63,263 nt of DNA, taken from the NCBI GenBank assembly GCA_019242155.1, contig JAFAWA010000038.1, positions 1 through 63,263 of the forward strand, given 5' to 3'. Made by a program: the position numbers and the translations under genes. Position 1 is the stretch's first letter. Every line of letters begins with the position of its first letter. The DNA comes from Terriglobia bacterium. Its GTDB lineage: Bacteria; Acidobacteriota; Terriglobia; Bryobacterales; Bryobacteraceae. This document shows, in pieces, positions 4,956 to 54,653 of the stretch. The notes beneath the pieces are model-generated. The model saw nothing but the letters and a program-made list of their open reading frames with translations, was not told the origin of the DNA and ran no database searches.

Positions 4956-8593
<3,638 letters not shown>

Positions 8594-39246: not shown

Positions 39247-41679
39247 TTAGAAAGAAAACCCCACTCCTCCGAGCGCGGTTACCCCAGAAGCCCGGTATCC
39301 TTCCGGATAATACGTTTTGTTGAAAAGATTGTCGACCTTTCCGTATACTCGAACGGCCCGGCTTTCTTTAGTCCAGAACTGATAGCTGCCGACGAAATCG
39401 GCTTTGGTCCAACCGGGAATCAGATATGCCTGGTTGTAACCGATGTAGGCGTTCAGCGAACTCGAGTACTTGTACATATCAAAAGTGGTCGTCAACCGCT
39501 TGCCCCATTGTTTGATGATGACGAGCGAAGCACTGTGCCGAGGCACATCGAATATCTGCCAGTAGCCGGGGACAGTGCTGTCCTGATCCGTTTCGGCTCG
39601 CGTGTAGGTGTACGACCCCGTGATCGTCATTCCCGCCATAGGCCGGGCTTCGCCGCTGAATTCCGCGCCCCGCGAGATCCCGCCGGCCCCGTTGATGTAC
39701 CCTGAGGTGCGGCCGTACGGATCGGTGACCGGCAGGATGTTCAGAAACTCGGTGACCTGTACGATACGCGTGTAGAAGAAGGTTCCCGACAACCGAATCC
39801 GGTTTCTAAAGAAATACTGATCCACACCGCCGTCGACGGAGTTGTATCGATCCGGCGCCAGGCGGGGATCTCCGTACGGGGTGAAGACCACCAACTTCGG
39901 ATTCGCGGGGTCGTTATAAAATCCCGCTCCAAAGCGCTCGTAGAGCCCCGGAGCCCGATATGAGTTGCCCACATGAGCGCGCAACTTGGTGCTGGTCTTG
40001 GCAAGAGTGTATGCCACTGATGTGTCGCCCGTCAGCGGCCGCGGCGCCTGCAGCGGCGAATTCACGTATGGATTTGCGGTTCCGGCGTATTCGAAATCAG
40101 GAGTTTTGATCTGGAAGGACTGTGCACGCCCGGAGAACGAAATCTGCAGGCGCTGATTCAACAGCGATAGGCGTGCTGCGAAATATCCGGCGTTCGAATT
40201 CTGCTGCGCATGCGTCGACTCTATGATGAGCTGGGGCGTGGGCAGATTATTGTCCTGGTGATCCGTATAGAACTCACGCTCGAACTCGTAGCCGCCGGAA
40301 AGCGAGAACCAGTGCGTGAAATCCGCTGTTGCGCGCAGGTCAAAGTTATCGATGTTCCCGGCATATTTACCATAATTCGTCGCCAGCGGCTGATAACCGA
40401 CTCCGCCCGGACCGTTTGTGTAAATCCGGTCGGTGCTCGTTTTGTTGTAGATCGCCTGCCAGTTGAATTTCGATGAAACCACGTCTTTGAACGTCACAGC
40501 TCCAGCCAGGAAATGGGACGCGCGCCGGTCGTCCGGATCCCACACATTCGGGACGAATGTGGCGTTCCCGAAGTTGGGTGATCCGCCCAAGGCAAACGCA
40601 TTGGCCTGCGCCACCGTTGCAGGGATGGCGGGGATCGGACCACTCGCCGGCAGGTTCGCCGGATTGATAACCGAGTTTGTCGGGCTATTCCCAAACATCA
40701 GGAAGTCGTCGGTTCCCCAGAAGCGCCCGGTAACGCTCATGCGCGGCGTCAGATTGTAGCGAAGTTGCCCCTGGACACCGGAATTCCTCCAGGGACTGTG
40801 TCCGTCGACACCTTCCATCACGTTTATGGTGACCAGGCCGACGCTGTACTGCAGCCGGTCTTGGAGCGCGCCGCCTCCGAGGCTTGCGCGTCCGCGGTAC
40901 ATGCCGAGGCTGCCGCCCTCCAACTGAATCTGCCCGTGGAATGGACCGCCTCCTTCCTTGGTCACCAGATTGATCGTGCCGCCGACGGCGTTCGTCCCAT
41001 AGAGCGACGAGCCGGAGCCTCGCAGAACCTCCACATGATCCACGTTGACCACCGTCATTGATTCGATGAACGAGCTGATGTCGCCCTGAGGATTGGCGGA
41101 ATCGCGAAGACGAATTCCGTCCACCAGGACCGCCGTGGCGTCAGCCCGGAGACCGCGGGAACTAATCGTGGTCCACTGCCCGGGGCCGCCCAAGTTTTGA
41201 ATGGTCACTCCCGGAGTGGTGGTCAACATATCCGAGATATTGTTGACGTTTCGATTCTCGATTTCCGCTGCGGAGACCACCGTAATGGGCTTGGACACTT
41301 CGTCCAGCATCTGCGCGCCCCCTTCGGCTGTCACGATCACCTGTTGGTTCACACCGGCGAGTTCTAAGGAAACGTCCAGATCTTTACTACTGCTCTTTTG
41401 GATTGTTACGCCCGTGGTCTGGGTGCGGAATCCATCCTTTTGGACCTGCAGTAGAAAGCTGCCCGGCGGGACCCCGACAAACTGATACTGTCCCGAGTCG
41501 GGAGTAACCGTGCGCGAAAATGCGGTTGAGTCCTGCTGGAAGATCTGCACGGTCGCGCCGCTCACCGCATTTCCTTGCGGATCGACGATCCTGCCCCGCA
41601 GTGCGGTTTCGCTTTGCGCGTATAAACCAGAACCCGCGAATACGGTTGTAAATAGCGCAGCTAGTCTGAACGACGTCAT
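39247..41679 (-). CDS. TonB-dependent receptor with N-terminal carboxypeptidase-regulatory-like domain
   Basis: The track ORF extends to 41919, but the signal peptide MTSFRLAALFTTVFAGSGLYAQ starts at ATG 41679. The CarboxypepD_reg-like region is LRGRIVDPQGNAVSGATVQIF and the plug is ITVVSAAEIENR..GVTIQNLGG. A long barrel ends in GGVGFSF with a terminal Phe. Confidence 0.9.
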   Translation of the reverse strand: MTSFRLAALFTTVFAGSGLYAQSETALRGRIVDPQGNAVSGATVQIFQQDSTAFSRTVTPDSGQYQFVGVPPGSFLLQVQKDGFRTQTTGVTIQKSSSKDLDVSLELAGVNQQVIVTAEGGAQMLDEVSKPITVVSAAEIENRNVNNISDMLTTTPGVTIQNLGGPGQWTTISSRGLRADATAVLVDGIRLRDSANPQGDISSFIESMTVVNVDHVEVLRGSGSSLYGTNAVGGTINLVTKEGGGPFHGQIQLEGGSLGMYRGRASLGGGALQDRLQYSVGLVTINVMEGVDGHSPWRNSGVQGQLRYNLTPRMSVTGRFWGTDDFLMFGNSPTNSVINPANLPASGPIPAIPATVAQANAFALGGSPNFGNATFVPNVWDPDDRRASHFLAGAVTFKDVVSSKFNWQAIYNKTSTDRIYTNGPGGVGYQPLATNYGKYAGNIDNFDLRATADFTHWFSLSGGYEFEREFYTDHQDNNLPTPQLIIESTHAQQNSNAGYFAARLSLLNQRLQISFSGRAQSFQIKTPDFEYAGTANPYVNSPLQAPRPLTGDTSVAYTLAKTSTKLRAHVGNSYRAPGLYERFGAGFYNDPANPKLVVFTPYGDPRLAPDRYNSVDGGVDQYFFRNRIRLSGTFFYTRIVQVTEFLNILPVTDPYGRTSGYINGAGGISRGAEFSGEARPMAGMTITGSYTYTRAETDQDSTVPGYWQIFDVPRHSASLVIIKQWGKRLTTTFDMYKYSSSLNAYIGYNQAYLIPGWTKADFVGSYQFWTKESRAVRVYGKVDNLFNKTYYPEGYRASGVTALGGVGFSF

Positions 41680-41765
41680 GAATATTTCCTTTCCGATTGG
41701 GCCATGATTCGATAGCGCAAGACGGGGACAGGCCGACATCGGCTGCCCGTGTGCGTTAGCGGCAG

Positions 41766-42950
41766 CTATGCCGCATCGTGCAACTGGCCGGTGGAGTGTC
41801 CGAGCCGCGGCTCGCGCCGCATCCTGGCGAGTTTCCTCGCAAGCACGCGATTCCACCACATGAGAAATCCGGTGATTGCGAGCAGCGCAGGGACAATGCC
41901 CATGAGCACCCAGAGACACTTCATCACCAGCCCGAAGTTTCCGAAGTGCAACGCATTAAGCCACACCAGGAAGCTCTCCCCAGCCCTGCGCCTCGTTGCT
42001 AATTGCAGCTTCACGATCTCTCCCGTGATGGGATCAACGTCGACGTTGCTGACGGAGGGGTAATCGCGAATGCCACCGCTCATCAGGGCCACTCGAAGCG
42101 CTCGACGCGGCTCATTTGGAATACTGACGTATTCCAGCCAAGAGCCGGGCACGGCTCTCGAGGCAGTGTCCAGAAGCCGGCTTAGCGGTAAGGGCTGTGC
42201 GCCCGGGTGCAATGGAATGGCGGCGGTTTCGGTCGGCCGCACCGTCGAGACGATCGAGACCAAAGCTTTGGTCTGTTTCGGCCACACGAAATACGCGCCG
42301 CTCGCCGAAAACATCAGCGTGAATAGGAGCGTAAAGAATCCTACGGTGCTGTGGAGGTCGTAGTTGACCCGCTTCCAACTCGCCGACCATCGGATGCTCA
42401 CGGCGCGCATCCAATATTTTTGGCCAGGCCACCACACCACCATGCCGGTCAGGCACAACAGTAAGAGCGCCAGTCCACCCGCGCCGTTTACAATTCTTCC
42501 GGTGGGTCCTGAAAGAAGGTTGATGTGCAGGTCGTCGAGCCACGCGAGAAAATCCTGGTTCAACTCCGGGCCGCGCTTGCCTACAATCGCTCCGGTAAAA
42601 GGATTGACGAAGACGGAACCGCGCTTACCATCGGATTGAATAGAAGCGCGGAAGGTGGATTGGGCGCTATAGGGAAGGCCCAACCCTGTTACCGTGGCGT
42701 TCGGGTAAGCGGCTATGACCGACTCCACAACCTTCTCAGCCGGAATATGGGGACCGCTGCCCGCAACGGTCAGGAGATCTTTAACCTGCCAGTCGCGGAT
42801 TTCCGGAGCAAATACCAGCAAGCTTCCGGTAAGCCCGACCACCACGGCATAGACCGCTGCCGCCAACCCTGCGTAGAGGTGGATCTGAAACAGCCACTCG
42901 CGTGCGGCGAAGGAGCGCGGCTTTTCGTAGATGCGTCGCACAACATTCAT
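41766..42950 (-). CDS. PepSY-associated TM-helix protein (PiuB/FoxB-like membrane protein)
   Basis: REWLFQIHLYAGLAAAVYAVVVGLTGSLLVF, DDLHINLLSG and LNALHFGNFGLVMKCLWVLMGIVPALLAITGFLMWW. The start is either ATG 42950 (MNVVRRIYEK) or the track start 42983. Confidence 0.85.
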   Translation of the reverse strand: MNVVRRIYEKPRSFAAREWLFQIHLYAGLAAAVYAVVVGLTGSLLVFAPEIRDWQVKDLLTVAGSGPHIPAEKVVESVIAAYPNATVTGLGLPYSAQSTFRASIQSDGKRGSVFVNPFTGAIVGKRGPELNQDFLAWLDDLHINLLSGPTGRIVNGAGGLALLLLCLTGMVVWWPGQKYWMRAVSIRWSASWKRVNYDLHSTVGFFTLLFTLMFSASGAYFVWPKQTKALVSIVSTVRPTETAAIPLHPGAQPLPLSRLLDTASRAVPGSWLEYVSIPNEPRRALRVALMSGGIRDYPSVSNVDVDPITGEIVKLQLATRRRAGESFLVWLNALHFGNFGLVMKCLWVLMGIVPALLAITGFLMWWNRVLARKLARMRREPRLGHSTGQLHDAA

Positions 42951-43007
42951 CAATGATGAACCCTCTCCCGAAATCTCAACCATGACCGGCCTCAGAGCAA
43001 TGATTTT

Positions 43008-44198
43008 CTAGCTCCGGGAGATCAACTGGAACTGCTCGACCTTCTCGCCGAGAATTTTTTGCGAATCGACCTCGAGCCACTGTTCGAGGACGTTCGCGTA
43101 GATCCCGCGGAAGTCGATCTTCGCGGGTAGTCCGCCGTCATTGGCGTTGGCGATATCCGGAAGGTCGCCGTGAATGCCCGCGCGGACCTTTCCACCCATG
43201 GCGAATACCAGGCCGGCATCGCCATGATCTGTGCCGCCCTCGCGATTCTCGCCCACCTGCCGTCCGAAATCGGAAAACGTCAATAACTGCACGCGCGAAA
43301 GCCGCCCGGCGGCCTTGAGATGCTCGGCGAAGGAACGCATTCCGCTTGCGAACTCGGAATACAGGACCTTGTGGATGTTTCGCTCGTCGCTATGTGTGTC
43401 AAAGGAGTACGGAGTATCGAAGGAGCCGAGGGTCACATAATACAAGCGCGTGGGAGCGCCGCTTTCAATCATGTTGCCGGCCCACCGTAGCGATTCTCCA
43501 AAAACTGTATTGGGATAGCTGAACCGCGACCCGGTTCCCTTACTCGCCTTGGCAAGTTGCCGTCCCATTTCGGCTAACTCGTTCTCCACCATCCGCAGAT
43601 GATCGAGCTTCGCGGCCGCAGGTGTTGCCGCGGGCGCCTTGGATTCCATTTGCATCAGTACCTTCGGATTGGCGATGGAACAGCTGCGGCCGCTACGGGA
43701 AGAAAGCGTCCGGTTCAGCATGTCCCCGAACTCGATGCCGGCTAATGCCCCGGCCTCCGCGGTCTGATCGAGGTACCGCCCGAGCCAGCCCTCGGCGGGG
43801 GCCTGCTCAGCGGTGCTGCCGGTCTCGAAAATCTCCGGCCCGCGGGTATGAGAGCGCGAAGAATTCGGATATCCGACATTGAGGATCGCGCTACCGTAAC
43901 CCTGATCGATCAGCCACTGGAAATCCGCGAGAGCCGGGTTCAATCCGAGGTCGCGGCCCTGAAGCGGAAGCGTCTCCTTCGAAGAGATCGCGATCGTGGG
44001 CCGTCCTTTGTAGTAGTGATCGTCGCGGATCGGAACGACCGCATTCAGCCCGTCGTTTCCTCCCCGCATCCTAACGATGATTAAAATATTGCCTTCATAA
44101 GACCCGTCGACGGCGAGCGCACTCTGCTGAAAAAACAGCGGAATCGCAGGCGTGAGCGCGCCCCATTGCAGAAAGCGGCGTCGATTGAAGCTGGACAT
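43008..44198 (-). CDS. DUF1501 domain-containing protein (Tat signal), second copy
   Basis: 396 aa with MSSFNRRRFLQWGAL, GGNDGLNAVVPIRDD, SFDTH and GGTDHGDAGLVFAMGGKVRAG. Confidence 0.82.
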   Translation of the reverse strand: MSSFNRRRFLQWGALTPAIPLFFQQSALAVDGSYEGNILIIVRMRGGNDGLNAVVPIRDDHYYKGRPTIAISSKETLPLQGRDLGLNPALADFQWLIDQGYGSAILNVGYPNSSRSHTRGPEIFETGSTAEQAPAEGWLGRYLDQTAEAGALAGIEFGDMLNRTLSSRSGRSCSIANPKVLMQMESKAPAATPAAAKLDHLRMVENELAEMGRQLAKASKGTGSRFSYPNTVFGESLRWAGNMIESGAPTRLYYVTLGSFDTPYSFDTHSDERNIHKVLYSEFASGMRSFAEHLKAAGRLSRVQLLTFSDFGRQVGENREGGTDHGDAGLVFAMGGKVRAGIHGDLPDIANANDGGLPAKIDFRGIYANVLEQWLEVDSQKILGEKVEQFQLISRS

Positions 44199-44227
44199 GT
44201 ATCTTCTCCTGATTCGAACGTTACCTG

Positions 44228-45709
44228 CTAGGCCAACTGATACTCGGGGGTCGCCAGAACCCGGCGCACCATCTCCTGGCTGCGTTTTGCCGGCGGAACT
44301 GCCTTCACGCTCCGTTCCAAAACCGCGGTATCGATGCCCGGGGCCGGATCGAGCCGTCTGAGGATGCTGGGCAACGGCCTATCGAGCGGTTTCGAGACCA
44401 CCGCGGGAGCGGTTGATGGAACCGGCGTCTCCGGAAGTAGACCCCAGGACGTATCTCCGCCGCACAGGGCAGCTCCCAACTGGTATCGCGCCGCCAGCCT
44501 TTCCGGCGGATTGGTCCACTCTTCCTGGCCGGGCCATCCCTCGCCCCCAAAGTTGGGTGCATCGAGCAGCGTCTGTCCGGAAGCGGTCATCCAGGTGTCG
44601 ATCGCAGCAAAGGGCGGATTCGATATTCCCAACTGGCGGCAAACGCCCACCACGAGATGCACCGGACTCTTGACCAGATTCCAGCGGGACGCGGGCGACC
44701 AGAACTCCTGACTCATCACTAAGTCGGCCAGCAGCGCCTCCACCGATCCTTTGGTGGTGTGATACGTCTCGGTCATCTGACCCGCAAGCCGCCCATCCGG
44801 ATCCTCGACGCCGAAATGCCGAATCATGAGCTTGCTGAAACGCCGGGCGGTGAGATCGTGCATTGCGAGGAATCGCACGGCATCGCGTGCTCCAAAATTG
44901 CGCGTGGTCCCGAGAATCGTCTTTGGGCCGTCGTCGAAGAACTCGGGATGAAACACAGGATTCAACCCCATCCGTCGATTAGAAGTAAACGCCTGGGGGT
45001 CGATCGGCTTGGGAGGCTGGACGCCTTCGGACGCCTCCAGCACCCAGCCCGTCAACGCGCGCGCGAGCGCCATTGTGTCCTCTCGTGAGTAATTTCCGGG
45101 CCCGATCGTCCAGTTATCGAACACTCGCGTGGCCGAAAACTCGGGCGGTTTCTCCTTCTTGGCCTCCTCGTAACTTTCCTGCATAATCATGCCGGGGTCG
45201 AGCACCATGGCTTCGACCATGTCCGGGATCGTGCCGAAAACGGCTTTTCGCAATAGTGCGTTGTATCCGTAGAGGGCCTGCGGGCCATCAATCACACGGC
45301 CGGATCCGCCGAAAACTCCGTGGAAGAAGAGGACCAGATTCTCCCGCAGAGGGGCCGTTCCGTTAATCATTTCCTGTAGCCACCACTCGCGCAGCACGGC
45401 CGCGTCGCGGCGGTTCGACTGACTGACCGCGTTTCGCATGGCCGCAATTTGGCTATTGGTCGTATCGGTAAACCGTAACGCTCTGTTGGTCCAGGTCCCT
45501 CGCGCGACGGCGGGCGTTTCCGGCAGGGCAGCCTCCCTGGACGCAGCCACCAGCGACCGGAAGGCGGCCGGAAGCGGTTTTCCTTCGATGGCTCGTTGCT
45601 GAGAGGGAGTGGCGGCGAAAGTGAGCCGACGCAGCAAATGACACGCGTCGGAGCTACCGCGGAGCACAATAGAAGACGGCGAATGGCTCATGTGGCCGAA
45701 TGCTAGCAT
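44228..45709 (-). CDS. DUF1800 domain-containing protein, second copy
   Basis: 493 aa with LLRRLTFAATP, LFFHGVFGG and GPGNYSREDTMALARALTGW. It is followed after 29 nt by DUF1501. An alternative start is ATG 45691. Confidence 0.78.
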   Translation of the reverse strand: MLAFGHMSHSPSSIVLRGSSDACHLLRRLTFAATPSQQRAIEGKPLPAAFRSLVAASREAALPETPAVARGTWTNRALRFTDTTNSQIAAMRNAVSQSNRRDAAVLREWWLQEMINGTAPLRENLVLFFHGVFGGSGRVIDGPQALYGYNALLRKAVFGTIPDMVEAMVLDPGMIMQESYEEAKKEKPPEFSATRVFDNWTIGPGNYSREDTMALARALTGWVLEASEGVQPPKPIDPQAFTSNRRMGLNPVFHPEFFDDGPKTILGTTRNFGARDAVRFLAMHDLTARRFSKLMIRHFGVEDPDGRLAGQMTETYHTTKGSVEALLADLVMSQEFWSPASRWNLVKSPVHLVVGVCRQLGISNPPFAAIDTWMTASGQTLLDAPNFGGEGWPGQEEWTNPPERLAARYQLGAALCGGDTSWGLLPETPVPSTAPAVVSKPLDRPLPSILRRLDPAPGIDTAVLERSVKAVPPAKRSQEMVRRVLATPEYQLA

Positions 45710-45737
45710 GGCCCCAAAAGAAGCAATCCGGCGGCGC

Positions 45738-45790
45738 GGTCAATCGCCGGTCACTAACCGCCGATTCGTGGTCACGCGCGGTCACCGGCG
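45738..45790. promoter_or_regulatory. Phased array of GGTCAC-type hexamers upstream of DUF1800
   Basis: Copies are GGTCAA at 45738, GGTCACTAACCG at 45749-45760, GGTCAC at 45770 and GGTCAC at 45780 (within GCGGTCACCGGCG, 45778-45790). The spacings are 11, 21 and 10 bp. The array fills most of the 96-bp spacer. Confidence 0.5.
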
Positions 45791-45805
45791 TACTAATGCG
45801 TCCGC

Positions 45806-47425
45806 CTACGGCGCTGTGCGGCGGGCTTGCGCCATGGTCATGGTGGCCGCGGGAGTCATGGCGTCGTAATAAGCGTTGAAACGGCGGGGCTCCGGCGCGT
45901 TATAGGACTTCAGATTATTGGCCCAGCGGTAGCCAATCGGCTGATACAGCAGCTCAACGTCTACGGTGAACGGACCCGCGGCATCGCCGAGCGGGACGGA
46001 ATATCGGACGCGGTCGCCGGCATCGGTGAAATTCGGATCGCTTGCGGCCTCACCGATTACGGCGATCTCGGGGCCGGCGGTGCGCTTGTCAAAGCCATGC
46101 GGCAGCAGCCGGTTATCTTTGATGTACCGTACCGCGGTAAGCAGGCCGGTGGTCACTCGACCAGTGGGGTCGGCCATGACCGATTCGTAGATCTGAACCT
46201 GATCGCTCGTGCGGATCTCGCGGTAATGGGGCTCGAAACGGCGCGGATCGGCATCATTATCGTTGCCCTGGATCGATCCGTCGGGATTGAGCGCGCCCGA
46301 TTCGAAGATGATCTTCTGGTTACGGTCGCGGACGGCCAGGTGCAGCCAGGTCCTGCGGGACGGATACGCGCTGGGCAGTTTGTGACCACCGAGGTTTTCG
46401 ACAAAAACATCGGCTTCGAGCCGCCCGCCCGCGACCGCGGCCTTTTCGATCGACAGCTTCACGCCCTGCGCTTGCAGATACCGTATGGTGTAGTCGGCCT
46501 GACCCGATAGCTCTTCGGGCAGCGCGCTTACCCTCAGCTCGTCACGAAAGCGGTTCAGCATCCGAAGCATGAAAAAGTTGGAAGCCACGAAGACGTGGCG
46601 CGCCACGTTCTCCCGGGGCTTGCCGAGCACGCGGGCGATGGGAACGTTCTCTTCGACCGCCGGCATGTGGCAGCTCTGACAGCTCTTCTGATCCTTATAA
46701 CTGCTGTGCAGCCACTCCTCGAAGGGCACCTGTTCCGGCAGTTCGCCGATCACGGCGTCCCCGGCACCGAGGGCCTCGGTATATAGGGTGTGGCAGGTGG
46801 CGCAAAGCTCGGATTTACGGATATGGTCATTCTTCGTCGGGTGGTAGCCTTCCGAAGAGCTTCGCATGATGCGGGTCTGGCCCTTCTCGATATCAAAGGG
46901 TCCGTACTCGGGGCGGTTGTCGGCGGCGTCGGGCGGGTCGATGACGAAGCCTCCGTTGAAGCTCTCGCGAGTGCCCAGCTTCTGTTCTCCGATCTGATGG
47001 CACACCGAGCAAGAGACCCCATCCTCGGCTTTGGCGCCGTTTTTTGGGTCGGCCTCGAAGGGTAAATGCGAGAAGACTTGGCCCTTCGCTCCGCGGAGCT
47101 TGGCCTCATAGCGAACGATGGGCATGTGGCATACGGCGCATTCGTCTTCGATATCGGCTTTGCGGTTGGGATGATCGATGGTCTCGCGCCGCACACTCGC
47201 CTGCCAGTAGGGATCGCGGGAGGAGTTGGCCATGATACTGGCGCGCCAATTGAATCCGATGGAGATGTCTTCGCCGGATGGAGTTTGGAGGCCGTTGTGG
47301 CACACCATGCAGCGATCGGAAGTTTGAAACCGCGGCTGCAACTCCTTCCGCCGCGCGCCGGCGGCAGTTCTTAGAACGGTAAACAGCAGCAGAGCTGTGA
47401 GAGCGGCCGAAACCCTCCGGGTCAT
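45806..47425 (-). CDS. Secreted pentaheme c-type cytochrome with heme-free C-terminal domain
   Basis: 539 aa with signal peptide MTRRVSAALTALLLFTVLRTAAG. It has five CxxCH motifs: CMVCH, CAVCH, CSVCH, CATCH and CQSCH. About 250 aa at the C-terminus carry no heme motif. Its start abuts the stop of the upstream cytochrome-barrel gene (TAAATG). Confidence 0.88.
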   Translation of the reverse strand: MTRRVSAALTALLLFTVLRTAAGARRKELQPRFQTSDRCMVCHNGLQTPSGEDISIGFNWRASIMANSSRDPYWQASVRRETIDHPNRKADIEDECAVCHMPIVRYEAKLRGAKGQVFSHLPFEADPKNGAKAEDGVSCSVCHQIGEQKLGTRESFNGGFVIDPPDAADNRPEYGPFDIEKGQTRIMRSSSEGYHPTKNDHIRKSELCATCHTLYTEALGAGDAVIGELPEQVPFEEWLHSSYKDQKSCQSCHMPAVEENVPIARVLGKPRENVARHVFVASNFFMLRMLNRFRDELRVSALPEELSGQADYTIRYLQAQGVKLSIEKAAVAGGRLEADVFVENLGGHKLPSAYPSRRTWLHLAVRDRNQKIIFESGALNPDGSIQGNDNDADPRRFEPHYREIRTSDQVQIYESVMADPTGRVTTGLLTAVRYIKDNRLLPHGFDKRTAGPEIAVIGEAASDPNFTDAGDRVRYSVPLGDAAGPFTVDVELLYQPIGYRWANNLKSYNAPEPRRFNAYYDAMTPAATMTMAQARRTAP

Positions 47426-48559
47426 TTACCAGCCTTCCTTCAGACTGCCGTCAAACCAGTCCCAGAGTACATAGAAGACTGCCTGGACGGGACGGCCCTG
47501 GGTGTTGGTTACGGGGACGTCGATGCCGAAGTCTGCCCGGACGTGCTGCCGCCTGCTCAAGGTCACCTGGAACTCGGGAAGGATATCGTAACCGGTCTTA
47601 GCGCCGGTGAGAAGGTCGCGCCGGGCCAGGATTTCCAGCATAGGGGTCCACATGCGGCCATCCCCCTGGCCCTGCCGCAGGCCCTTCCCCAGAGACTCCC
47701 GCCAAAACAGAGATTGAGGGGCGGTGCGGGTATTGGCAGACAGGTTTGCGCCCACTTCGCCCTGGAAGAAAAAGTTGTAGGGTAATAGCTGCCCATAGGC
47801 GGCGAAGGTCTCGAACGTGGTCACACCCGCGCCCGTGCCTCTCCTCGGACTGCCTGTGGGCGCTATTACGGTGCCGTCGATGCTGAAAATCGAGCCGGTG
47901 CGGTTATTGAGCCCGAGCACCCGCAGCCAGCCCAGCCCGATGTCTCCAATCCCACCCAGCCAGCGCCCGGTGCTGTGTGTGAACGCGACCGGGACGGTCG
48001 CATCGATCTCGTTTTTGACGCCCACGCGATGCTCGTACTCGATTTCGTTGTTCACTCCCGGCGCGCCGTGGGCATTGAGCGTCGTAGTGCTGATGACCTC
48101 GTCTTCGGGGAATGCCTTGTCCACCATCAGGGGCCTTGGCAGATTTAGTTCGCCTCGCGGCCATTCGGGCTCGCGGCAGAGAGTTCGCAAGTAGCCGATC
48201 ACGAGGTCGATCTGCTCGGAAGTGAGTGCCTCGCTGAAAGACGGCATTATCGGGGAGAAGCCGCGCCCGGGGCCGCCGCGGCGGATCGTGGCTTTCCAGT
48301 CGGCATCGAGTTCCGGCGTGGTTCCGGAGCAATCGGAGAAATCGGGGAACGTAGCGGGTTTTTTGAAGACCAGCGTCGTATCCGGCTGTCCCTTGCCGTC
48401 CGGCCCATGGCAAGCGACGCAGGCCGCCAGATAGATACTCTTACCCGAGCCGAGATCCAGTTCGCCGGTCTGGCTGTTCTGCGGGAGAAGCACGGCGGGG
48501 TAAGTGAGCAGAAGCAGAACCGCAATTACGAGCGGCGGAAGTCCCAGCGGTGTTTTCAC
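47426..48559 (-). CDS. Monoheme class-I cytochrome c domain fused to a predicted outer-membrane beta-barrel domain (Cyc2-like architecture)
   Basis: The track ORF extends to 48706. GTG 48559 gives a signal-peptide-like start (V)KTPLGLPPLVIAVLLLLTYPAVLLPQ. The cytochrome region is GKSIYLAACVACHGPDGKG...IMPSFSEALT. About 230 aa of alternating hydrophobic pattern follow, ending ...VLWDWFDGSLKEGW with a terminal aromatic residue as in OMPs. Confidence 0.7.
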   Translation of the reverse strand: MKTPLGLPPLVIAVLLLLTYPAVLLPQNSQTGELDLGSGKSIYLAACVACHGPDGKGQPDTTLVFKKPATFPDFSDCSGTTPELDADWKATIRRGGPGRGFSPIMPSFSEALTSEQIDLVIGYLRTLCREPEWPRGELNLPRPLMVDKAFPEDEVISTTTLNAHGAPGVNNEIEYEHRVGVKNEIDATVPVAFTHSTGRWLGGIGDIGLGWLRVLGLNNRTGSIFSIDGTVIAPTGSPRRGTGAGVTTFETFAAYGQLLPYNFFFQGEVGANLSANTRTAPQSLFWRESLGKGLRQGQGDGRMWTPMLEILARRDLLTGAKTGYDILPEFQVTLSRRQHVRADFGIDVPVTNTQGRPVQAVFYVLWDWFDGSLKEGW

Positions 48560-48700
48560 TGAGTCAAGAAAAGAACGGTGGGCCGTCCTTTCCGAGGGCC
48601 TGGAGTTGAGGGAAGTATGATTGGGGTCGTAGACCAATTCCAATGATATATTTTCTGAGGCAAAGCTGAAGCCGGCAGTTCTCGCCACCCAACGCCTGGC

Positions 48701-48737
48701 GGTCACAGTTAGTCAGTAACCGGATGTAACGAGTCAC
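48701..48737. promoter_or_regulatory. Phased GGTCAC-type hexamers upstream of the cytochrome operon
   Basis: Copies are GGTCAC at 48701, AGTCAGTAACCG at 48711-48722 and AGTCAC at 48732, with spacings of 10 and 21 bp. The middle element matches the 12-mer at 45749 and 60685 in 10/12 positions. Confidence 0.45.
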
Positions 48738-48927
48738 GGGAGCTTTTTGCAGTAACTTACAGGATTCGGTGGCGGAACAGAGGGACGGACGTTCCGAAGG
48801 AAAGGGTCGCTTGCGTACACCGGGCGCCTGCCAAACCGCGTCTCGGTGTTAGCTTAGGCATGTCGGCGTTGCGCAATTCGGCCGGGGGTCTTGTCTCAAA
48901 TCGGTCGCGTATTGAGGGAACTTACAC

Positions 48928-50094
48928 ATGCAACTCAAATCGATACTGCTTCTTCTGCCTGTGGCATTGGCTGCCTCGGGGCAAGCACTTAAAGTGGAGA
49001 TGCTCGCCAATCCATCGGGCGCGGAGAGTCTTCAAGCGCATTGGGGCACCGCTTCCGATGAGAGCCCCCTGTTAAGCTGGCTTGAAAAATCGAAGGACGG
49101 CTCGCTTTCGCTGCGCTATGCGGTTCGGCGGGGCGCTCAGTGGTCTGAGCCGCGCGTGATTGTTGCCAATCGCCAGTTCTTCCGCCAACCCGCCGAAGCA
49201 CCGTCCGTGATCTCCTTCCGCAACGGCTCGTTACTGGCGGAATGGGTCGAGGTGCCTCCGGGATCGGGAGAGGCTGAAAATCTATATGTCTCGAGCTCCA
49301 AGGATGGAACGCAATGGACGGCTCCGGTAATGGCCCATCGGGACAGGAGTCCCGTTCAGCATGCGTTGGCCTCCTTTACGGCGAGCGGCGACAATGAAGG
49401 GTCCGTTGTTTGGTTGGAAGCCTTGAAAGGCGAAGATGCGCCGTCCGCGCTGAAAAGGACTCTCGTCAATGGTGACGGCGCAGTGGTCAAAGAGGAGACT
49501 CTGGACTCCGACGTTTGCACCTGCTGCCCGACGAGTATAGTGAAGACCGCGAAGGGGCTGCTGGTCGCCTACCGTGACCATACCTCGAAGGATATTCGTG
49601 ATATCGCGGTCGTTCGTCTGGAAAACGGCCGCTGGCTGCCTTCGCGAATCGTGAACCCGGATAATTGGGAGATCAATGCATGCCCGGTGAACGGACCGGC
49701 GGCGGCGGCCAACAACAATCGTGTGGCGATCGCATGGTACACGGAAGCGCAAGACAGCCCGCGCACGCTGCTTGCCTTTTCCAGCGATGGCGGGGCGAGT
49801 TTCTCGAAGCCGATCAAGATCAGCACCGGCAACTCCTTCGGCCATACTTCAGTGACACTCGCTGATAATGGCGATGCGATGGTTTCGTGGCTCGAAGAGG
49901 GCTCTGGGGACCGCGTGCGGCTGCTCGCGCGTCAGGTGACGAATGCGGGTGTTGCCGGCCCGGTGGTCGAGGTCGCACAGGACGCGCAGAGGAGTATCGG
50001 ATACCCCAGATTGCTGCAGGTGCGCAACGAAACCTGGATTGCTTGGGGCAATTCGGGCAGCACCAAGATCCACACCGCCCGAATAGTGAAGTAG
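48928..50094 (+). CDS. Secreted BNR-repeat (sialidase-like beta-propeller) protein
   Basis: 388 aa with signal peptide MQLKSILLLLPVALAASG. BNR/Asp-box motifs are SSSKDGTQWT and FSSDGGASFS. Confidence 0.75.
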   Translation: MQLKSILLLLPVALAASGQALKVEMLANPSGAESLQAHWGTASDESPLLSWLEKSKDGSLSLRYAVRRGAQWSEPRVIVANRQFFRQPAEAPSVISFRNGSLLAEWVEVPPGSGEAENLYVSSSKDGTQWTAPVMAHRDRSPVQHALASFTASGDNEGSVVWLEALKGEDAPSALKRTLVNGDGAVVKEETLDSDVCTCCPTSIVKTAKGLLVAYRDHTSKDIRDIAVVRLENGRWLPSRIVNPDNWEINACPVNGPAAAANNNRVAIAWYTEAQDSPRTLLAFSSDGGASFSKPIKISTGNSFGHTSVTLADNGDAMVSWLEEGSGDRVRLLARQVTNAGVAGPVVEVAQDAQRSIGYPRLLQVRNETWIAWGNSGSTKIHTARIVK

Positions 50095-50372: not shown

Positions 50373-51905
50373 ATGCTAATCCTGATCAGGAAGATGGCCA
50401 TCGTGTGCCACCGCTGGACGGGGGTGGTGTTCTGTCTGTTGTTCGCCTGGTGGTTTGTGTCGGGGATCTTCATGATGTATTGGGATTTTCCGGGCATCAG
50501 CGAAGCGGATCGCCTCGCGCGATCTGAGGCCGTCGACGCCTCCCGCATCAGGGTATCGCCCTCCGCGGCCTACGCTACATTGAAGCAGGAACGCCCTCCG
50601 TCGACCGCGCAGCTCGTGATGTTCGCGGGCCGGCCGGCCTATCGCTTTTCAGGGGAGGGTGGCCGGCGGGGCGCGCAAACGCTCGTCTATGCGGACGATG
50701 GGACACGGCAGGAGCAGTGCGCCGACGCGCTCGCCCTGAGGGTTGCGGCAGCTTGGACAGGCCAACCGCAAACGCTGGCCCGAGTGCAGGAAATGACTGA
50801 CGTGGATCAGTGGACGATCCAAGGCCAGCTCCGAACTCTTCGACCGCTTATCAAATACTCCTGGCCGGACGGAGAGCAGGCATACGTCTCCAAGCGGACC
50901 TGCGCGGTGGTTCAATATACGACGCGCAGCTCCAGAACCTTCGCACATTTAGGCGCCATTCCTCACTGGCTCTATTACACTCCTTTGCAAAAAAACGGCC
51001 TGTTGTGGACCCGGATCGTGATCTGGTCCTCGGGGCTTGCGACGCTCGCGGCGCTGCTGGGGCTCATTGTAGGCATCTCCCTGTACTCGCCTTCGAAACG
51101 CTATTGGGTTTTTGGGGAGCCGACCGGCATTCCTTACAAGGGCCAGAAACGCCTGCATATGATTTTCGGTCTCTTTTTCGGAATGGTTGCCTGCACTTGG
51201 GCTTTCAGCGGAATGCTGTCCATGGACCCGTTCCCAGCGACCACGGCAGGGGAGACCGGCGGCCGAAGCGCCGGGAACCGTATGCTGGCGGCGCTCCACT
51301 CGGGGCGGCTGCAGATGGGCGCGTTCGACGCGAAACCGCCGCGCGAGGCTTTGGCCGAAGTCGCTTCTCAGCTTCGCGTCAAGCAGTTGGATTTCACCTG
51401 GTTTGTTGGCGATCCCGTGTACCTTGCCAGTGAAGATCCGCGGCACACCCGGATTATCCCGGTTAACGGCCCGGCGGCGGAGCATTTCGATAGCGCCCGC
51501 ATCATCCAGATTCTCAAATTGGCCAGCCAACCGGCCGGCTTGGCTGAAGCTCGCGTTCTTAACGAATATGACGCCTATTATGAGGACAGGCTCGGCGAAA
51601 AGCCTTTGCCGGTGATTCTGGCGCGTCTCAATGACAAACAACAGACGCGATATTACATCGATCCTCGAACGGCACGAGTGGTCGGCAGCTACAATTCCCG
51701 CCTATGGATGACCCGCTGGCTTTACCACGGCTTACACTCGCTGGACTTTCCGCTCTTATACAAACATCGCCCGGCTTGGGATGTGGTAGTGCTTTCGCTG
51801 CTGCTCGGCGGTACTGCGCTCTGCGTGACTTCGGTCATCCTCGCGTGGCAGCTCATGCGTAGGAAATTGGCGCCTCCTTCGCAGCGGAGCCGTGCCGCCT
51901 CATAG
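50373..51905 (+). CDS. PepSY-associated TM-helix protein (second copy)
   Basis: 510 aa with MAIVCHRWTGVVFCLLFAWWFVSGIFMMY, AHLGAIPHWLYY, LAALHSGRL and WLYHGLHSLDFP..VVVLSLLLGGTALCVTSVILAW. Confidence 0.83.
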   Translation: MLILIRKMAIVCHRWTGVVFCLLFAWWFVSGIFMMYWDFPGISEADRLARSEAVDASRIRVSPSAAYATLKQERPPSTAQLVMFAGRPAYRFSGEGGRRGAQTLVYADDGTRQEQCADALALRVAAAWTGQPQTLARVQEMTDVDQWTIQGQLRTLRPLIKYSWPDGEQAYVSKRTCAVVQYTTRSSRTFAHLGAIPHWLYYTPLQKNGLLWTRIVIWSSGLATLAALLGLIVGISLYSPSKRYWVFGEPTGIPYKGQKRLHMIFGLFFGMVACTWAFSGMLSMDPFPATTAGETGGRSAGNRMLAALHSGRLQMGAFDAKPPREALAEVASQLRVKQLDFTWFVGDPVYLASEDPRHTRIIPVNGPAAEHFDSARIIQILKLASQPAGLAEARVLNEYDAYYEDRLGEKPLPVILARLNDKQQTRYYIDPRTARVVGSYNSRLWMTRWLYHGLHSLDFPLLYKHRPAWDVVVLSLLLGGTALCVTSVILAWQLMRRKLAPPSQRSRAAS

Positions 51906-51952
51906 TTGCTTCTGGCGCCTCGCCGGCGGTGCGCAGTTGCGAGCGGCGTTCA

Positions 51953-52540
51953 TTACTTGCACCGGTCTGCCAGATTGGGCTTTTCCCGCCATTTGTTATG
52001 ACAATTCGAGCACGCGTTGGTCATCGTATCGGCCGCGGTCAGGATATTGTCCTGATTCTTGGATTGCGCGGCTTTATAGACGGCCATTCCCGCGTCGCGA
52101 AGCTCTTGAACGAACTTTGGCCAATCGGGGTTGTTCAACGGAACGGGCAGTCCGTTGGAGCATTTCCGGCCGGGGAGCATGAGCACGTTGGCAACTTCGG
52201 CGAGCGCCAGTCCGCTGTTTTCGACGGCTGTCCATTTGCCATAGGCACTCGCCAGTAGATTGACTGTGGTTCCCGAATCCTTGTCTTGCGGCACGTCCGC
52301 CGGATTCACATTCTGAGCCGCAAAAATTACGTTTGAGGACGGAAATAGGGTGCCCCGCATTAGCTGCGCGAGATTCGCCTCCACCCGGGCGCCCGGTATG
52401 GGGGAACCCGCGGCGGATCCGGTAGGACGGCTTTTAGCCGGTGCTTGTGCCTGAGAGAGTGCCGGGAAGGGAACCGCAATCACCATTCCGGCAAGAATCA
52501 TAAGACTGCTTCGGGAATTCCGTAAATTCAAGGTTTTCAT
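51953..52540 (-). CDS. Class II (cytochrome c'/c556-like) c-type cytochrome
   Basis: The track ORF extends to 52612, but the signal peptide MKTLNLRNSRSSLMILAGMVIAVPFPALSQAQA starts at ATG 52540. A single CxxCH lies near the extreme C-terminus (ACSNCHNKWREKPNLADRCK), the class-II topology. The preceding sequence is helix-rich. Confidence 0.65.
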   Translation of the reverse strand: MKTLNLRNSRSSLMILAGMVIAVPFPALSQAQAPAKSRPTGSAAGSPIPGARVEANLAQLMRGTLFPSSNVIFAAQNVNPADVPQDKDSGTTVNLLASAYGKWTAVENSGLALAEVANVLMLPGRKCSNGLPVPLNNPDWPKFVQELRDAGMAVYKAAQSKNQDNILTAADTMTNACSNCHNKWREKPNLADRCK

Positions 52541-52559
52541 ATATCGGCTCCGGGAGAAT

Positions 52560-52964
52560 TCATGGTTGGGGACCACCGTCAAGGCTCGTGCCGGCGAACA
52601 CCTTGCGGCCATTTGCGAGCAAGACCGATCGGGCGGACGCCACTTTGGCGCCGTCGCGCGCTGGATAGCCTACTACGGTTACGCGGTCGCCGGCTTTGAG
52701 CGAGTGACGATCCCAACCCAACCTCGTCAACGAATTGGGTCCCGCGATCTCGAAAGCCCAGTTTGCAGTGCGCCCAGCCTTTTCTGTAACAGTGGCATAA
52801 AAATACACGTGGGGATTAGTCCAGTCGACCTTGGTGACGACGCCCTCAAAGGTAGTGGATTGCTTCGCGTCGAACTCCGCGGAGAATGCATGGTGGGCCG
52901 AAAGGCGCGGCACATCGAACGCGTAACTGACACATAATGTAAATCCGATCAAGATGGCCCGCAT
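52560..52964 (-). CDS. Small secreted His-His protein (resembles what I recall as DUF6152), paralog A
   Basis: Starts at ATG 52964 (MRAILIGFTLCVSYAF..RLSA|HHAFSAEFDAKQS..). Conserved with paralog B: AHHxFSxEFDA, KVxWxxPH, VASAR, ANGK and DGGP. It lies 19 nt upstream of the cytochrome c' gene. Confidence 0.65.
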   Translation of the reverse strand: MRAILIGFTLCVSYAFDVPRLSAHHAFSAEFDAKQSTTFEGVVTKVDWTNPHVYFYATVTEKAGRTANWAFEIAGPNSLTRLGWDRHSLKAGDRVTVVGYPARDGAKVASARSVLLANGRKVFAGTSLDGGPQP

Positions 52965-53132
52965 GAAAGTGCAGAGCGCCCGGCGCTTACCGACCGGTTG
53001 TAGCACAGGTTTAGCTCAGCGATGGCCAATGGGCAGGACACGGCGGTCTGTGACCTGGTTGGCAGCGTTTAAGGACGGGCGATCTGCCGGCGCGAGCGCC
53101 TGAGCTAGGCCGTTTCACAACATACTGAGAGC

Positions 53133-53149
53133 ATTTGTCTTCGACAAAT
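53133..53149. promoter_or_regulatory. Perfect 7-3-7 palindrome ATTTGTC-TTC-GACAAAT (candidate operator)
   Basis: Read directly from the sequence, in the 347-bp divergent spacer between the two His-His paralogs. Confidence 0.4.
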
Positions 53150-53157
53150 TAGAAAAG

Positions 53158-53175
53158 GTCACAATACGCTGTGAC
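53158..53175. promoter_or_regulatory. Inverted repeat GTCACA-N6-TGTGAC containing the GGTCAC motif
   Basis: The sequence is aGGTCACAatacgcTGTGACtt. It is adjacent to the first palindrome, and a further CCAGGTCACA copy lies on the other strand at 53049-53058. Confidence 0.4.
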
Positions 53176-53311
53176 TTGCCCGTATCCCAAGCGAGCGCGG
53201 TGACAGACGCGCGCGATCGCTATTTTCTTAACCAGTGGGAGCTCTGAACAGCATGCAGGATCAGGAGTCTGGGTGCCTGTTTGCTTGAGTTCGCCCCAGG
53301 AGGTTTCTACG

Positions 53312-53710
53312 ATGAGGGTAAAAAGAATAGCAGCCCTGTCTGCTCTTTCGATTGGAGGTTTCCAGTTATGGGCACATCATCAATTCTCGTCCGAATTCGA
53401 TGCGAACAAGTCCATGACCTTAACAGGAACGGTTTCGAAAGTCGAATGGGTCAAACCGCATGCCTACATTTACCTGAACGCCAAGAATGAAAGCGGGAAA
53501 GTGGAGCAATGGAAGCTGGAGACGGCTAGTCCCGACTATTTGAAACAACATGGCATAACCCCTTCCAATTTCAAGAAGGGCGAATTCGTGACGGTGCATG
53601 CGTATGGTGCGACTAATGAGCCTCATGTTGCTTCTGCGCGAATGGTGACTGCCAACGGCAAAGATATAGAGGTTGCAGACCCTAAGGAAGACGGCGGCCC
53701 CGAGAAGTAA
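53312..53710 (+). CDS. Small secreted His-His protein (DUF6152-like), paralog B
   Basis: AGGAGG lies 8 nt before ATG 53312. The sequence is MRVKRIAALSALSIGGFQLWA|HHQFSSEFDANKS...KVEWVKPH...VASARMVTANGK...DGGPEK. By eye it is about 40% identical to paralog A. Confidence 0.7.
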   Translation: MRVKRIAALSALSIGGFQLWAHHQFSSEFDANKSMTLTGTVSKVEWVKPHAYIYLNAKNESGKVEQWKLETASPDYLKQHGITPSNFKKGEFVTVHAYGATNEPHVASARMVTANGKDIEVADPKEDGGPEK

Positions 53711-53720
53711 CGGCAAAAGC

Positions 53721-54653
53721 TCAATGTGAACCAGCCATTCTTGTTCTGCGATTCCACCACAGGATAAGTCCGGTTATGGCTAAGAATGCAGTAAAAAGAC
53801 TCGCCGAGGCCCAGAGAATGCGCATAGCCATCGACGGAAATTGGCCAACGTGAAACGTGTAAGACAGGCGAGCGAGTGGTGACGGTACCCGAAGCTGGAG
53901 GGTAGTTTCGGTAATCAGCACAGCGGCGGTGACTGCGAATATGAAAACGAGCGGGAAGGTCCAAAAGCCGACGGCGCTATGGAACTCCCAATGGAATCGC
54001 CTCAACTGTAAATGACGGCGAATTCGCAGGTGCCGCCGCCATCGGCTGACGCCAGGCCACCAGATCACGATCCCAGTAGAGGCTAACGAAGCAAGCAGAG
54101 CAGCTCCCAAACCATTTACCCGGCGCCCGCTCGCCCCCGAACATAAGTTCGTGTGGAGATCCTTCACGGAATTTAACAGGCGCACCGGGAAAGGTCTCGC
54201 GGTACCCAAGTCTTCTCCTGTGAATGGATCGAAGAGACGCTCGGTCTGGTTGCGTCCGTGAGTCAACCAGATTTCGACCGGAAGATTGCTCCGCTCCCAA
54301 ATCCAAGTCACCGAGGAGCCCGGATGCGCCTTAAGGGCTGCCTCCTTCAGCTGTGCGCGGGTCAGATGCTTAGCACGAACCTCAATATGAGGGTGCGGCG
54401 TTAACCCCCGGTAAAGCTCCGCGTAAAATACCAAGACACATCCGGTAAGGCTCATCATCACGACGTACAGTCCGGCTCCGACTCCTATCCAACTGTGGAT
54501 GCGAAATAGAAACTGCCGGGCAGACAAGCGCTGCGGATGCCCAACCCAGGTTCGCCACGTGGAGGAGAGCGCCGGAACTACCGAAAACAGCTGCAGTTTG
54601 CGCCATCGGATTAGAAGCCCACACGGTCCCCCCGTTGCCGGCATGAACGACAT
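53721..54653 (-). CDS. PepSY-associated TM-helix protein (third copy), last gene of the czc operon
   Basis: 310 aa with FLFRIHSWIGVGAGLYVVMMSLTGCVLVF, VKDLHTNLCSG and GLGAALLASLASTGIVIWWPG. It starts 6 nt after the czcA stop. Confidence 0.8.
   Translation of the reverse strand: MSFMPATGGPCGLLIRWRKLQLFSVVPALSSTWRTWVGHPQRLSARQFLFRIHSWIGVGAGLYVVMMSLTGCVLVFYAELYRGLTPHPHIEVRAKHLTRAQLKEAALKAHPGSSVTWIWERSNLPVEIWLTHGRNQTERLFDPFTGEDLGTARPFPVRLLNSVKDLHTNLCSGASGRRVNGLGAALLASLASTGIVIWWPGVSRWRRHLRIRRHLQLRRFHWEFHSAVGFWTFPLVFIFAVTAAVLITETTLQLRVPSPLARLSYTFHVGQFPSMAMRILWASASLFTAFLAITGLILWWNRRTRMAGSH

Follow-up and report, generated by a model that had tools for sequence, protein, structure and literature searches.

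Fused cytochrome-porins have so far been known only as Cyc2/Cyt572, the main marker of microbial Fe(II) oxidation. As defined by Keffer et al., Cyc2 has a signal peptide and one CXXCH, with the motif AxPxFAR[Q/K][T/Y] 5 aa upstream of it and a PxL motif downstream, 4 aa past CXXCH, followed by a 16-strand, OprO/OprP-like barrel; in the model, Fe2+ passes into the pore and the heme lies at its periplasmic mouth (PMC8406198). In the solved member of the COG4313 channels, ~14 residues ahead of strand 1 fold inwards from the periplasmic side and leave the lumen almost blocked, and the family is thought to have amphipathic or hydrophobic substrates and to form poor channels for hydrophilic solutes (PMC4493636). 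FapF has a layout of periplasmic domain, plug and 12-strand barrel (PMC5557850). Here, we describe a two-gene module from a Terriglobia bacterium (Acidobacteriota, Bryobacteraceae; GenBank assembly GCA_019242155.1, contig JAFAWA010000038.1), found in a stretch of 63,263 nucleotides that was analysed as a whole and that we call the window. Gene A encodes a cytochrome c fused to a 12-strand barrel, and gene B, directly downstream, encodes a pentaheme cytochrome. We consider it highly probable that gene A forms an outer-membrane barrel of the COG4313 type that carries a covalently joined, periplasmic monoheme cytochrome c, and that in this clade it is obligatorily paired with a c552-like pentaheme protein. 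The parts of the module are listed here with their coordinates in the window.

47426..48559, minus strand: gene A (P0001), 377-aa cytochrome c / 12-strand barrel fusion; stop codon included, start taken from homologue N-termini and the database gene call
48560..48706, minus strand: upstream extension of the longest open reading frame (ORF), probably untranslated; no counterpart in 44 aligned relatives
48479..48559, minus strand: signal-peptide-like N-terminus, aa 1 to ~27, MKTPLGLPPLVIAVLLLLTYPAVLLPQ, read from the sequence; modelled hydrophobic helix at aa 9-18
48173..48463, minus strand: class-I cytochrome c domain, aa 33-129; PF00034 and PF13442 above cut-offs
48407-48421, minus strand: CVACH codons of gene A
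48245-48247, minus strand: Met105 codon of gene A
48101..48172, minus strand: linker preceding strand 1, aa 130-153, EPEWPRGELNLPRPLMVDKAFPEDE; proposed lumen plug, from conservation and predicted local distance difference test (pLDDT) scores
47459..48100, minus strand: 12-stranded beta-barrel, aa 154-367, COG4313 / Phenol_MetA_deg type, from AlphaFold2, Foldseek, PF13557 in relatives and couplings
47429..47458, minus strand: C-terminal tail past the last strand, aa 368-377, WFDGSLKEGW; conserved as WDWFDG...GW(K/R)
45806..47425, minus strand: gene B, secreted pentaheme cytochrome of 539 aa; five-heme domain at the N-terminus, Ig-like beta-sandwich at the C-terminus; five CXXCH, ATG abutting the gene A stop

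The longest ORF, 47426..48706 on the minus strand, encodes 426 aa when counted from its first GTG, and an earlier note on this DNA had placed the start of the gene there, at 48706. This is 147 bases too far upstream. In 44 aligned relatives and in the database gene call the protein begins with 'MKTPLG...', at GTG 48559, so the first 49 codons of the longest ORF are probably untranslated. By this alignment the true start is probably GTG 48559 and the protein 377 aa long, and all residues of gene A are numbered in this form. The N-terminus is predicted to be signal-peptide-like, and the alignment contains relatives with an 'A-Q' type end to this segment.

Gene A: fusion, heme domain, barrel and linker

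A word-indexed search returned 3,633 relatives of gene A, mostly full length, 55-75% identical and nearly all with one CXXCH. The databases name them just 'mono/diheme cytochrome c family protein' or 'c-type cytochrome'. When one genome is counted per species, at least 592 genomes encode gene A, nearly all of them Acidobacteriota from the Bryobacterales, Terriglobales and Acidoferrales, and the cultured isolate Acidobacteriaceae bacterium KBS 96 carries the module. The earlier note had read gene A as a cytochrome c fused to a barrel. The fusion is real: it is one continuous ORF in more than 3,600 relatives, the model of gene A has 12 strands, and the distribution maps mostly to the Acidobacteriota. 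We also searched 1.84 billion representatives with the barrel alone using HMMER, which gave 599 clusters. All ten of the apparent barrel-only matches inspected were truncated or frameshifted calls: they start inside the cytochrome domain, for the most part at MPAFG, or contain a frameshift, and a separate family of barrel genes was rejected on this ground. Nor did this search show any soluble version of the cytochrome domain with a separate barrel. The cytochrome-barrel fusion is obligatory, with no credible barrel-only form among the matches inspected.

The heme domain of gene A is a complete class-I cytochrome c of ~95 aa. At about aa 38-127 it scores 37.5-37.8 bits with Pfam Cytochrom_C (PF00034; cut-off 21.3) and 34.9 bits with Cytochrome_CBB3 (PF13442; cut-off 27). 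All 119 full-length relatives contain a single CXXCH, which in gene A is the CVACH at aa 47-51. C47, C50, H51 and M105 are invariant among 44 relatives, with Met105 inside an IMPSF / RGFSxIMPxF motif, and these residues predict His/Met axial ligation of the heme. Two further cysteines, Cys77 and Cys128, are invariant in the same 44 relatives and may form a disulfide.

AlphaFold2, run with an alignment of 44 sequences, modelled gene A with a mean pLDDT of 84.4 and a predicted template modelling (TM) score of 0.78 (pTM). In this model the cytochrome domain has helices, and aa 154-367 contain 12 strands. Several strands alternate between hydrophobic and polar residues and their polar face is the conserved one. 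The lumen-facing E176, E309 and H339 are invariant in a set of 22 relatives that are 29-53% identical to the window protein. We also carried out a mean-field direct-coupling analysis on 334 aligned sequences, a shallow alignment with an effective depth of ~204 for 345 columns. Its top couplings recover the hairpin registers of adjacent strands, and the pairs A163-A360 and H164-V358 connect strand 1 with strand 12, closing the barrel. The 12 strands, the alternation and the closure together uphold the earlier reading of the C-terminal part as barrel-like. One argument for that reading was weaker. The ending ...DGSLKEGW had been given correctly, but a terminal aromatic residue is of limited weight because W comes last in only 38 of 119 relatives, the remaining 81 ending in WK or WR. 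The last 10 residues are modelled beyond the final strand.

Comparison of the gene A model with the PDB using Foldseek gave FapF as the best match (E 3e-10, TM 0.65 on target) and the COG4313 channel Pput2725 (4RL8; 4rl8_C) as the second (E 5.4e-7, probability 1.00, TM 0.54 on target). Further matches were all 12-strand barrels, namely NanC, KdgM, PcoB and the autotransporter beta-domains of EspP, Hbp and BrkA. The C-terminal 248 aa of the window protein had no match in Pfam or NCBIfam, with none to PF13557 even at E up to 10, and sequence and profile searches of the PDB with the gene A barrel returned chance-level matches only, such as ribosomal S5 at E 0.8. PF13557 was matched by the C-terminal domains of 8 of the 22 diverse relatives (best E 1.7e-5). 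The highest score was 46.1 bits, with the gathering score at 22. It came from P0481, a protein of the same two-gene module whose full length aligns with the window protein at 42% identity (E 5e-102); six more relatives scored 25.9-31.4 bits. Because these are clear homologues, we assign the gene A barrel to COG4313 / Phenol_MetA_deg, as a diverged member of this superfamily. A likeness to the Phenol_MetA_deg type had been put forward in the earlier note, and the two top folds and the PF13557 matches of relatives agree with it.

The best-conserved stretch of gene A is the 24-aa linker between the two domains (WPRGELNLPRxxxTEKAFPEDE). P134, N139, K148, P151 and E154 are invariant in all 22 of the diverse relatives. 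The linker is modelled with a pLDDT of 90-94 and without regular secondary structure, and the model has no helix of more than 3 residues in aa 127-153. Linker residues 140-150 couple to lumen-facing residues slightly above the periplasmic strand ends, for example R142/L144-D343, P141-D367, M145-L327 and F150-R336. These couplings, the conservation of the linker and the analogy with the segment that enters the lumen in the solved COG4313 channel suggest that the linker probably folds into the gene A lumen as a plug.

In outer-membrane proteins the chain termini usually lie at the periplasmic rim, and heme is attached to c-type cytochromes in the periplasm. Of the couplings that join the cytochrome domain to the barrel, 8 of 9 within the top 100 (p 0.016) and 36 of 51 within the top 300 (p 0.0012) involve the terminus-bearing rim. 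Examples are W88-V181, K56-K292 and A69-S372, the last of which joins heme-domain residue 69 to residue 372 in the C-terminal tail. These rim couplings, periplasmic heme attachment, the FapF layout and the lack of a long helix in the linker favour a periplasmic heme domain over one displayed at the cell surface, suggesting that the heme domain is docked beneath the barrel on its periplasmic side.

Gene B and the surroundings of the module

The stop codon of gene A and the start codon of gene B are contiguous in the window (TGG TAA ATG, 47423-47431), confirming the TAAATG junction described earlier, and the pairing extends well beyond this genome. Of 82 loci, 80 have gene B directly downstream of gene A and two end at a contig edge, so it is present in 80 of 80 intact loci. 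Clustering of the flanking ORFs of 80 loci gave no other conserved neighbour, the next being a TonB-dependent receptor type found in 9 loci. Two distant homologues (P0289 and P0334) are faulty gene calls, 704-735 aa long, that read through a frameshift from the fusion into pentaheme-like sequence (SIGxxWRASMMAN...). By running from A into B they provide evidence of synteny.

Gene B of the window has exactly five CXXCH, and five are present in 119 of 120 relatives. Identity is 64-80% among the 120 matches listed, and ~130 positions are invariant in 40 sequences. The C-terminal beta-sandwich of gene B was modelled well and the heme domain poorly (pLDDT 55). Foldseek gave only one match below 1e-3, to cytochrome c552 of Thermochromatium tepidum (5ZE8; E 6.2e-10), and its low TM of 0.30-0.41 is a consequence of the poorly modelled heme domain. 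A profile match to 5ZE8 (E 4.1e-4) lies on a GGHKLPTAYPSRR-type motif, and a weak match of gene B to NCBIfam ExtKL covers the same motif region. By fold and motif similarity to 5ZE8, gene B is a c552-like pentaheme cytochrome. Like c552 (5ZE8) and MccSep/ExtKL, it has five CXXCH followed by a C-terminal Ig-like domain with a GHxxPT..P.R-type motif; it differs from both in being ~100 aa longer.

The ExtKL/MccSep protein of Geobacter is a periplasmic polysulfide reductase that needs Sec325 and the heme ligand Cys239 (bioRxiv 10.1101/2025.11.18.688581). We rejected this identity for gene B, in which the catalytic Sec/Cys325 and the ligand Cys239 are absent. Exactly 10 cysteines are found in 59 of 120 gene B relatives, including the window protein, and no extra cysteine is conserved; as half of the family has no cysteines beyond those of the heme motifs, gene B is not MccSep. 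MccSep is encoded beside an outer-membrane barrel gene, extI, in the ext cluster.

Two further models matched gene B weakly and in part: the OmcA/MtrC decaheme model TIGR03507, at E 0.0016, and the MtrC/MtrF domain PF22113, at 30.4 bits where the cut-off is 30. In Acidobacteriia, matches to models of this kind have been tallied as 'Fe(III) reduction genes' in metagenome surveys (e.g. PMC7980381), and such tallies might include the gene B family. Antisense ORFs lie over gene B in the window (45827-46510, plus strand, 227 aa) and in another locus (L003), where one of 557 aa spans the gene (7059-8732, minus strand). The ORF cluster that includes the one in L003 has members at 71 of the 80 loci. 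GC-rich codon usage probably accounts for these antisense ORFs. No convincing regulatory motif emerged when 76-77 upstream regions were analysed for palindromes and enriched k-mers, and scans of 45500-49000 for promoters, terminators and Rfam families gave nothing useful.

Several other genes surround the module in the window. A DUF1800/DUF1501 pair (43008-45709, minus strand) begins 96 bases past the gene B stop on the same strand; this pair was absent from the module flanks of the other genomes compared. A TonB-dependent receptor with Plug and CarboxypepD_reg domains lies at 39247-41919 and three PepSY_TM proteins at 41766-42983, 50373-51905 and 53721-54653. A 219-aa ORF at 51953-52612 has a C-terminal CXXCH and a weak match to cytochrome c' (E 3.7e-4, below cut-off), and a DUF6152 protein is encoded at 52560-53006; DUF6152 is also found near the module on the contig of another relative (P0049). 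Across the 80 loci, this iron-uptake-type neighbourhood (39247-44198 and 50373-54653) is not conserved elsewhere. In one locus (L088, 3064-8797) the A-B module divergently adjoins a flavocytochrome c sulfide dehydrogenase pair, consisting of the FCSD flavoprotein and a 136-aa cytochrome c. The pair was in no other fetched locus, and a link to sulfide is only a lead.

More distant fusions have other surroundings. Searching from one with ~30% identity (P0367), in which RRGH replaces RRQH, gave 128 relatives that belong to the Binatia or Vicinamibacterales where named, several of them with precomputed PF13557 matches. In one locus (L083, 5832-8074) a cytochrome P450 gene lies upstream with its stop overlapping the fusion start, and on another contig (that of P0436) a P450 is part of a thiolase / short-chain dehydrogenase (SDR) / DUF1329 cluster 2.4 kb from the fusion. 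YceI genes are found near distant fusion homologues in two loci (L083 and L084). In two more (L085/L086), the place of the pentaheme gene directly downstream of the distant fusion is taken by a gene for a small Haem_bd (PF14376) protein (8158-8646). The P450 contexts hint at uptake or oxidation of hydrophobic compounds and, with the lipid contexts, are consistent with the tradition of amphipathic substrates in COG4313.

Proposed working of the module and rival explanations

We propose that the barrel of gene A would sit in the outer membrane with its His/Met monoheme cytochrome c docked at the periplasmic rim, and that the linker would fill the periplasmic half of the lumen, comparable to the N-terminal segment of Pput2725 and the plug of FapF. 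A small, diffusible, redox-active solute would enter the narrow, polar, conserved channel and exchange electrons with the heme at the periplasmic mouth. The translationally coupled gene B protein would link this outer-membrane-fixed heme to the remaining periplasmic electron-transfer chain or, alternatively, would itself act on the imported substrate. That a solute reaches the heme through the channel, with gene B relaying electrons or processing the solute, is a tentative reading to which we give somewhat less than an even chance; the full proposal for genes A and B, taken as a whole, seems to us evenly balanced between right and wrong. The earlier note had envisaged a conduit between outer membrane and periplasm. 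The abutting pentaheme gene fits this idea, but wiring through gene A alone does not, because the heme is predicted to be periplasmic and a 12-strand, probably plugged barrel is too small for the heme domain, so that gene A alone cannot carry electrons across the membrane and a substrate would need to reach the heme by diffusion.

Candidate solutes, drawn from analogy, are Fe2+, an amphipathic quinone or phenolic, and sulfur species. Three things point to Fe2+ as a possible solute: the analogy with Cyc2, the acidity of the lumen and host ecology. The barrel family and the P450 contexts suggest amphipathic quinones or phenolics as candidates, and the structural relatives of gene B together with one locus suggest that sulfur species may also be considered.

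Several observations count against the passage of a solute to the heme and its relay by gene B. That COG4313 channels conduct hydrophilic solutes poorly argues against Fe2+. The linker-barrel couplings lie in the periplasmic half in 8 of 11 cases, a weak enrichment (p ~0.1), and just 25 of the top 51 barrel-barrel pairs fit adjacent strands or the closure. The lumen may be fully occluded, leaving the barrel merely as an anchor. Neither a regulatory motif nor a neighbour that indicates the substrate is conserved. Finally, the loci examined in the distant clade (that of P0367) keep the fusion without gene B, which makes the fusion the core unit and gene B a clade-specific partner that is dispensable for the core function of the fusion.

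The main rival takes the possible occlusion of the lumen further. Here, a closed barrel would only tether the periplasmic cytochrome c to the inner face of the outer membrane and organise a periplasmic redox or enzymatic complex with the pentaheme protein, nothing would go through the barrel, and the gene B protein could be a periplasmic reductase or oxidase of the c552 and MccSep structural class. The very high conservation of the linker is in keeping with a closed barrel, as are the enzyme-like conservation of gene B, with its ~130 invariant positions, and the presence of a true enzyme, MccSep, among the structural relatives of gene B. However, the lumen-facing residues (E176, E309 and H339) are the most conserved part of the barrel, which would be needless in a mere anchor, and anchoring as a lipoprotein would be far cheaper than building 12 strands. 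The failure to see a soluble form of the cytochrome with a separate barrel also speaks against a simple tether. We judge this explanation unlikely.

A less probable explanation is that gene A is a Cyc2-type Fe(II) oxidase by function while being non-homologous to it, so that Fe2+ enters and is oxidised by the heme and gene B takes the part of the periplasmic Cyc1 encoded beside cyc2. The layout is the same, with a signal peptide, one heme, a barrel and a downstream gene for a periplasmic cytochrome, and in the Cyc2 model, too, the heme is periplasmic and Fe2+ enters the pore. Acidic and His residues are invariant in the lumen, and a TonB-dependent receptor and three PepSY_TM genes lie in the window neighbourhood. 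The hosts, Bryobacterales, Terriglobales and Acidoferrales, are acid-soil groups that have been proposed as iron cyclers (PMC7980381). Against this, the Cyc2 motif is missing, the barrel has 12 strands rather than 16 and its family is tied to amphipathic substrates, and the neighbourhood is not conserved at 80 other loci. In addition, Fe(III) produced in the periplasm would precipitate near neutral pH. These organisms are not known to oxidise iron. On balance, this function is improbable.

Display of the cytochrome domain at the cell surface by an autotransporter-like 12-strand barrel is more doubtful still. The order of signal peptide, N-terminal domain, linker and C-terminal 12-strand barrel is that of type Va systems, beta-domains of EspP, Hbp and BrkA are among the fold matches, and COG4313 itself resembles autotransporters after cleavage (PMC4493636). 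These fold matches are nevertheless weaker (E 4e-6 or worse) than those to FapF and COG4313, and the modelled linker lacks a long alpha-helix. The cytochrome-barrel couplings map to the rim that bears the termini rather than to the opposite one, and they include the coupling of heme-domain residue 69 with the C-terminal tail. A folded holo-cytochrome is also a poor substrate for a 12-strand pore. We therefore regard surface display as very improbable.

The weakest rival, an annotation or assembly artefact in which frameshift or misassembly has joined a cytochrome gene to a barrel gene, has almost no chance of being right: some database entries do look barrel-only, but these start inside the cytochrome domain at MPAFG or are frameshifted, an uninterrupted ORF is seen in at least 592 genomes and in more than 3,600 relatives, most of them full length, and the linker is the best-conserved segment, which settles the possibility of an unnoticed frameshift raised in the earlier note.

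If a solute does meet the heme at the channel mouth, the proposal could be carried one step further. Soil Acidobacteriota would then have independently invented a second fused cytochrome-porin, an outer-membrane redox gate at which a solute is oxidised or reduced right where the channel that imports it opens to the periplasm, with a dedicated pentaheme relay. The solute could be Fe2+, a quinone or hydroquinone of the humic type, or hydrophobic sulfur or polysulfide. We hold this version to be somewhat unlikely. If it is true, hundreds of abundant soil species possess an unrecognised route for extracellular redox cycling, and the marker sets for Cyc2, Mtr and Pcc would miss the fusion, as far as this can be tested. 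Having a second fusion unrelated to Cyc2 would mean that this architecture evolved more than once. The fusion is abundant: species-level genomes that encode it number at least 592 and metagenome proteins run to thousands, most of them from the dominant Acidobacteriota of soil and peat. It would offer a concrete, testable candidate for a respiratory module behind the unexplained redox capacities of these poorly cultured hosts, and its presence in the isolate KBS 96 makes genetics and biochemistry feasible.

Comparison with known systems

In the literature on fused cytochrome-porins, COG4313, FapF and electron transfer in Acidobacteriota we found only Cyc2/Cyt572 or unrelated systems and no description of this fusion, in line with the suggestion in the earlier note that it is undescribed. 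The combination of domains is visible in precomputed Pfam annotations, and no source names the protein beyond 'cytochrome c'.

Gene A is like Cyc2/Cyt572 of Acidithiobacillus, Zetaproteobacteria, Gallionellaceae and Leptospirillum in having a signal peptide or signal-peptide-like N-terminus, a single N-terminal heme, a C-terminal barrel and a similar length. In both cases a gene for a periplasmic cytochrome lies downstream, the heme is expected to be periplasmic and the substrate must enter the pore. By contrast, Cyc2 has a short heme segment and 16 strands, whereas gene A has a full PF00034 domain, a 12-strand barrel of the COG4313 type and a conserved, plug-like linker. None of 270 sequences, made up of 120 close relatives and 150 cluster representatives, contains the Cyc2 pattern P.FAR[QK][TY]. 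The sequence ahead of CVACH in the window is GSGKSIYLAA, and the residues past it, GPDGKGQPD, do not have PxL at the Cyc2 position. OprO/OprP were not among the top 50 fold matches of the gene A model, of which the top ones were 12-strand barrels. With the Cyc2 motif missing, 12 strands of another family and a complete class-I fold, gene A is not a member of the Cyc2 family, and its fusion is independent in origin from Cyc2. The earlier note had already set the protein apart from Cyc2 by its larger heme domain and smaller barrel, a distinction that holds at ~95 aa of class-I cytochrome and 12 versus 16 strands. By analogy, the two could still work alike, each keeping a heme where a narrow barrel opens to the periplasm and having a periplasmic cytochrome encoded next door.

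The porin-cytochrome conduits (MtrAB-C, PioAB/MtoAB and Pcc of Geobacter) resemble the module in that the gene for an outer-membrane barrel adjoins one for a multiheme cytochrome. They differ in having 20-26 strands around a membrane-spanning deca- or octaheme wire, whereas gene A has 12 strands with its heme outside the barrel and a five-heme partner. A recent preprint on extracellular electron transfer in peatland (10.64898/2026.05.27.727921) describes a different system, Acidobacteriota clusters with 8-13-heme cytochromes and Mtr-like porins, and does not mention a fusion.

FapF (5O65/5O67/5O68) is the best structural match of gene A and has the same domain order. Its periplasmic domain, unlike that of gene A, is a coiled coil, and FapF is encoded in the fap operon and exports unfolded amyloid subunits. 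There are no fap genes in the window or among the conserved neighbours of gene A. We rejected a role as a FapF-type exporter, given the cytochrome c at the N-terminus, the lack of a fap context and a folded multiheme partner that could not pass.

The family to which the barrel is assigned is that of the COG4313 / PF13557 channels (Pput2725 4RL8, TcpY and SphA), with which gene A shares 12 strands and a segment before strand 1 that is expected in the lumen. Known members are stand-alone barrels of ~250-300 aa with ~14 residues before strand 1, no redox cofactor and amphipathic organic substrates. Gene A differs from them in having a whole cytochrome c ahead of its barrel, and the window protein has diverged too far to be matched by the hidden Markov model of the family. 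It would be the first channel of the COG4313 type with a built-in redox cofactor, which bears on what these channels transport.

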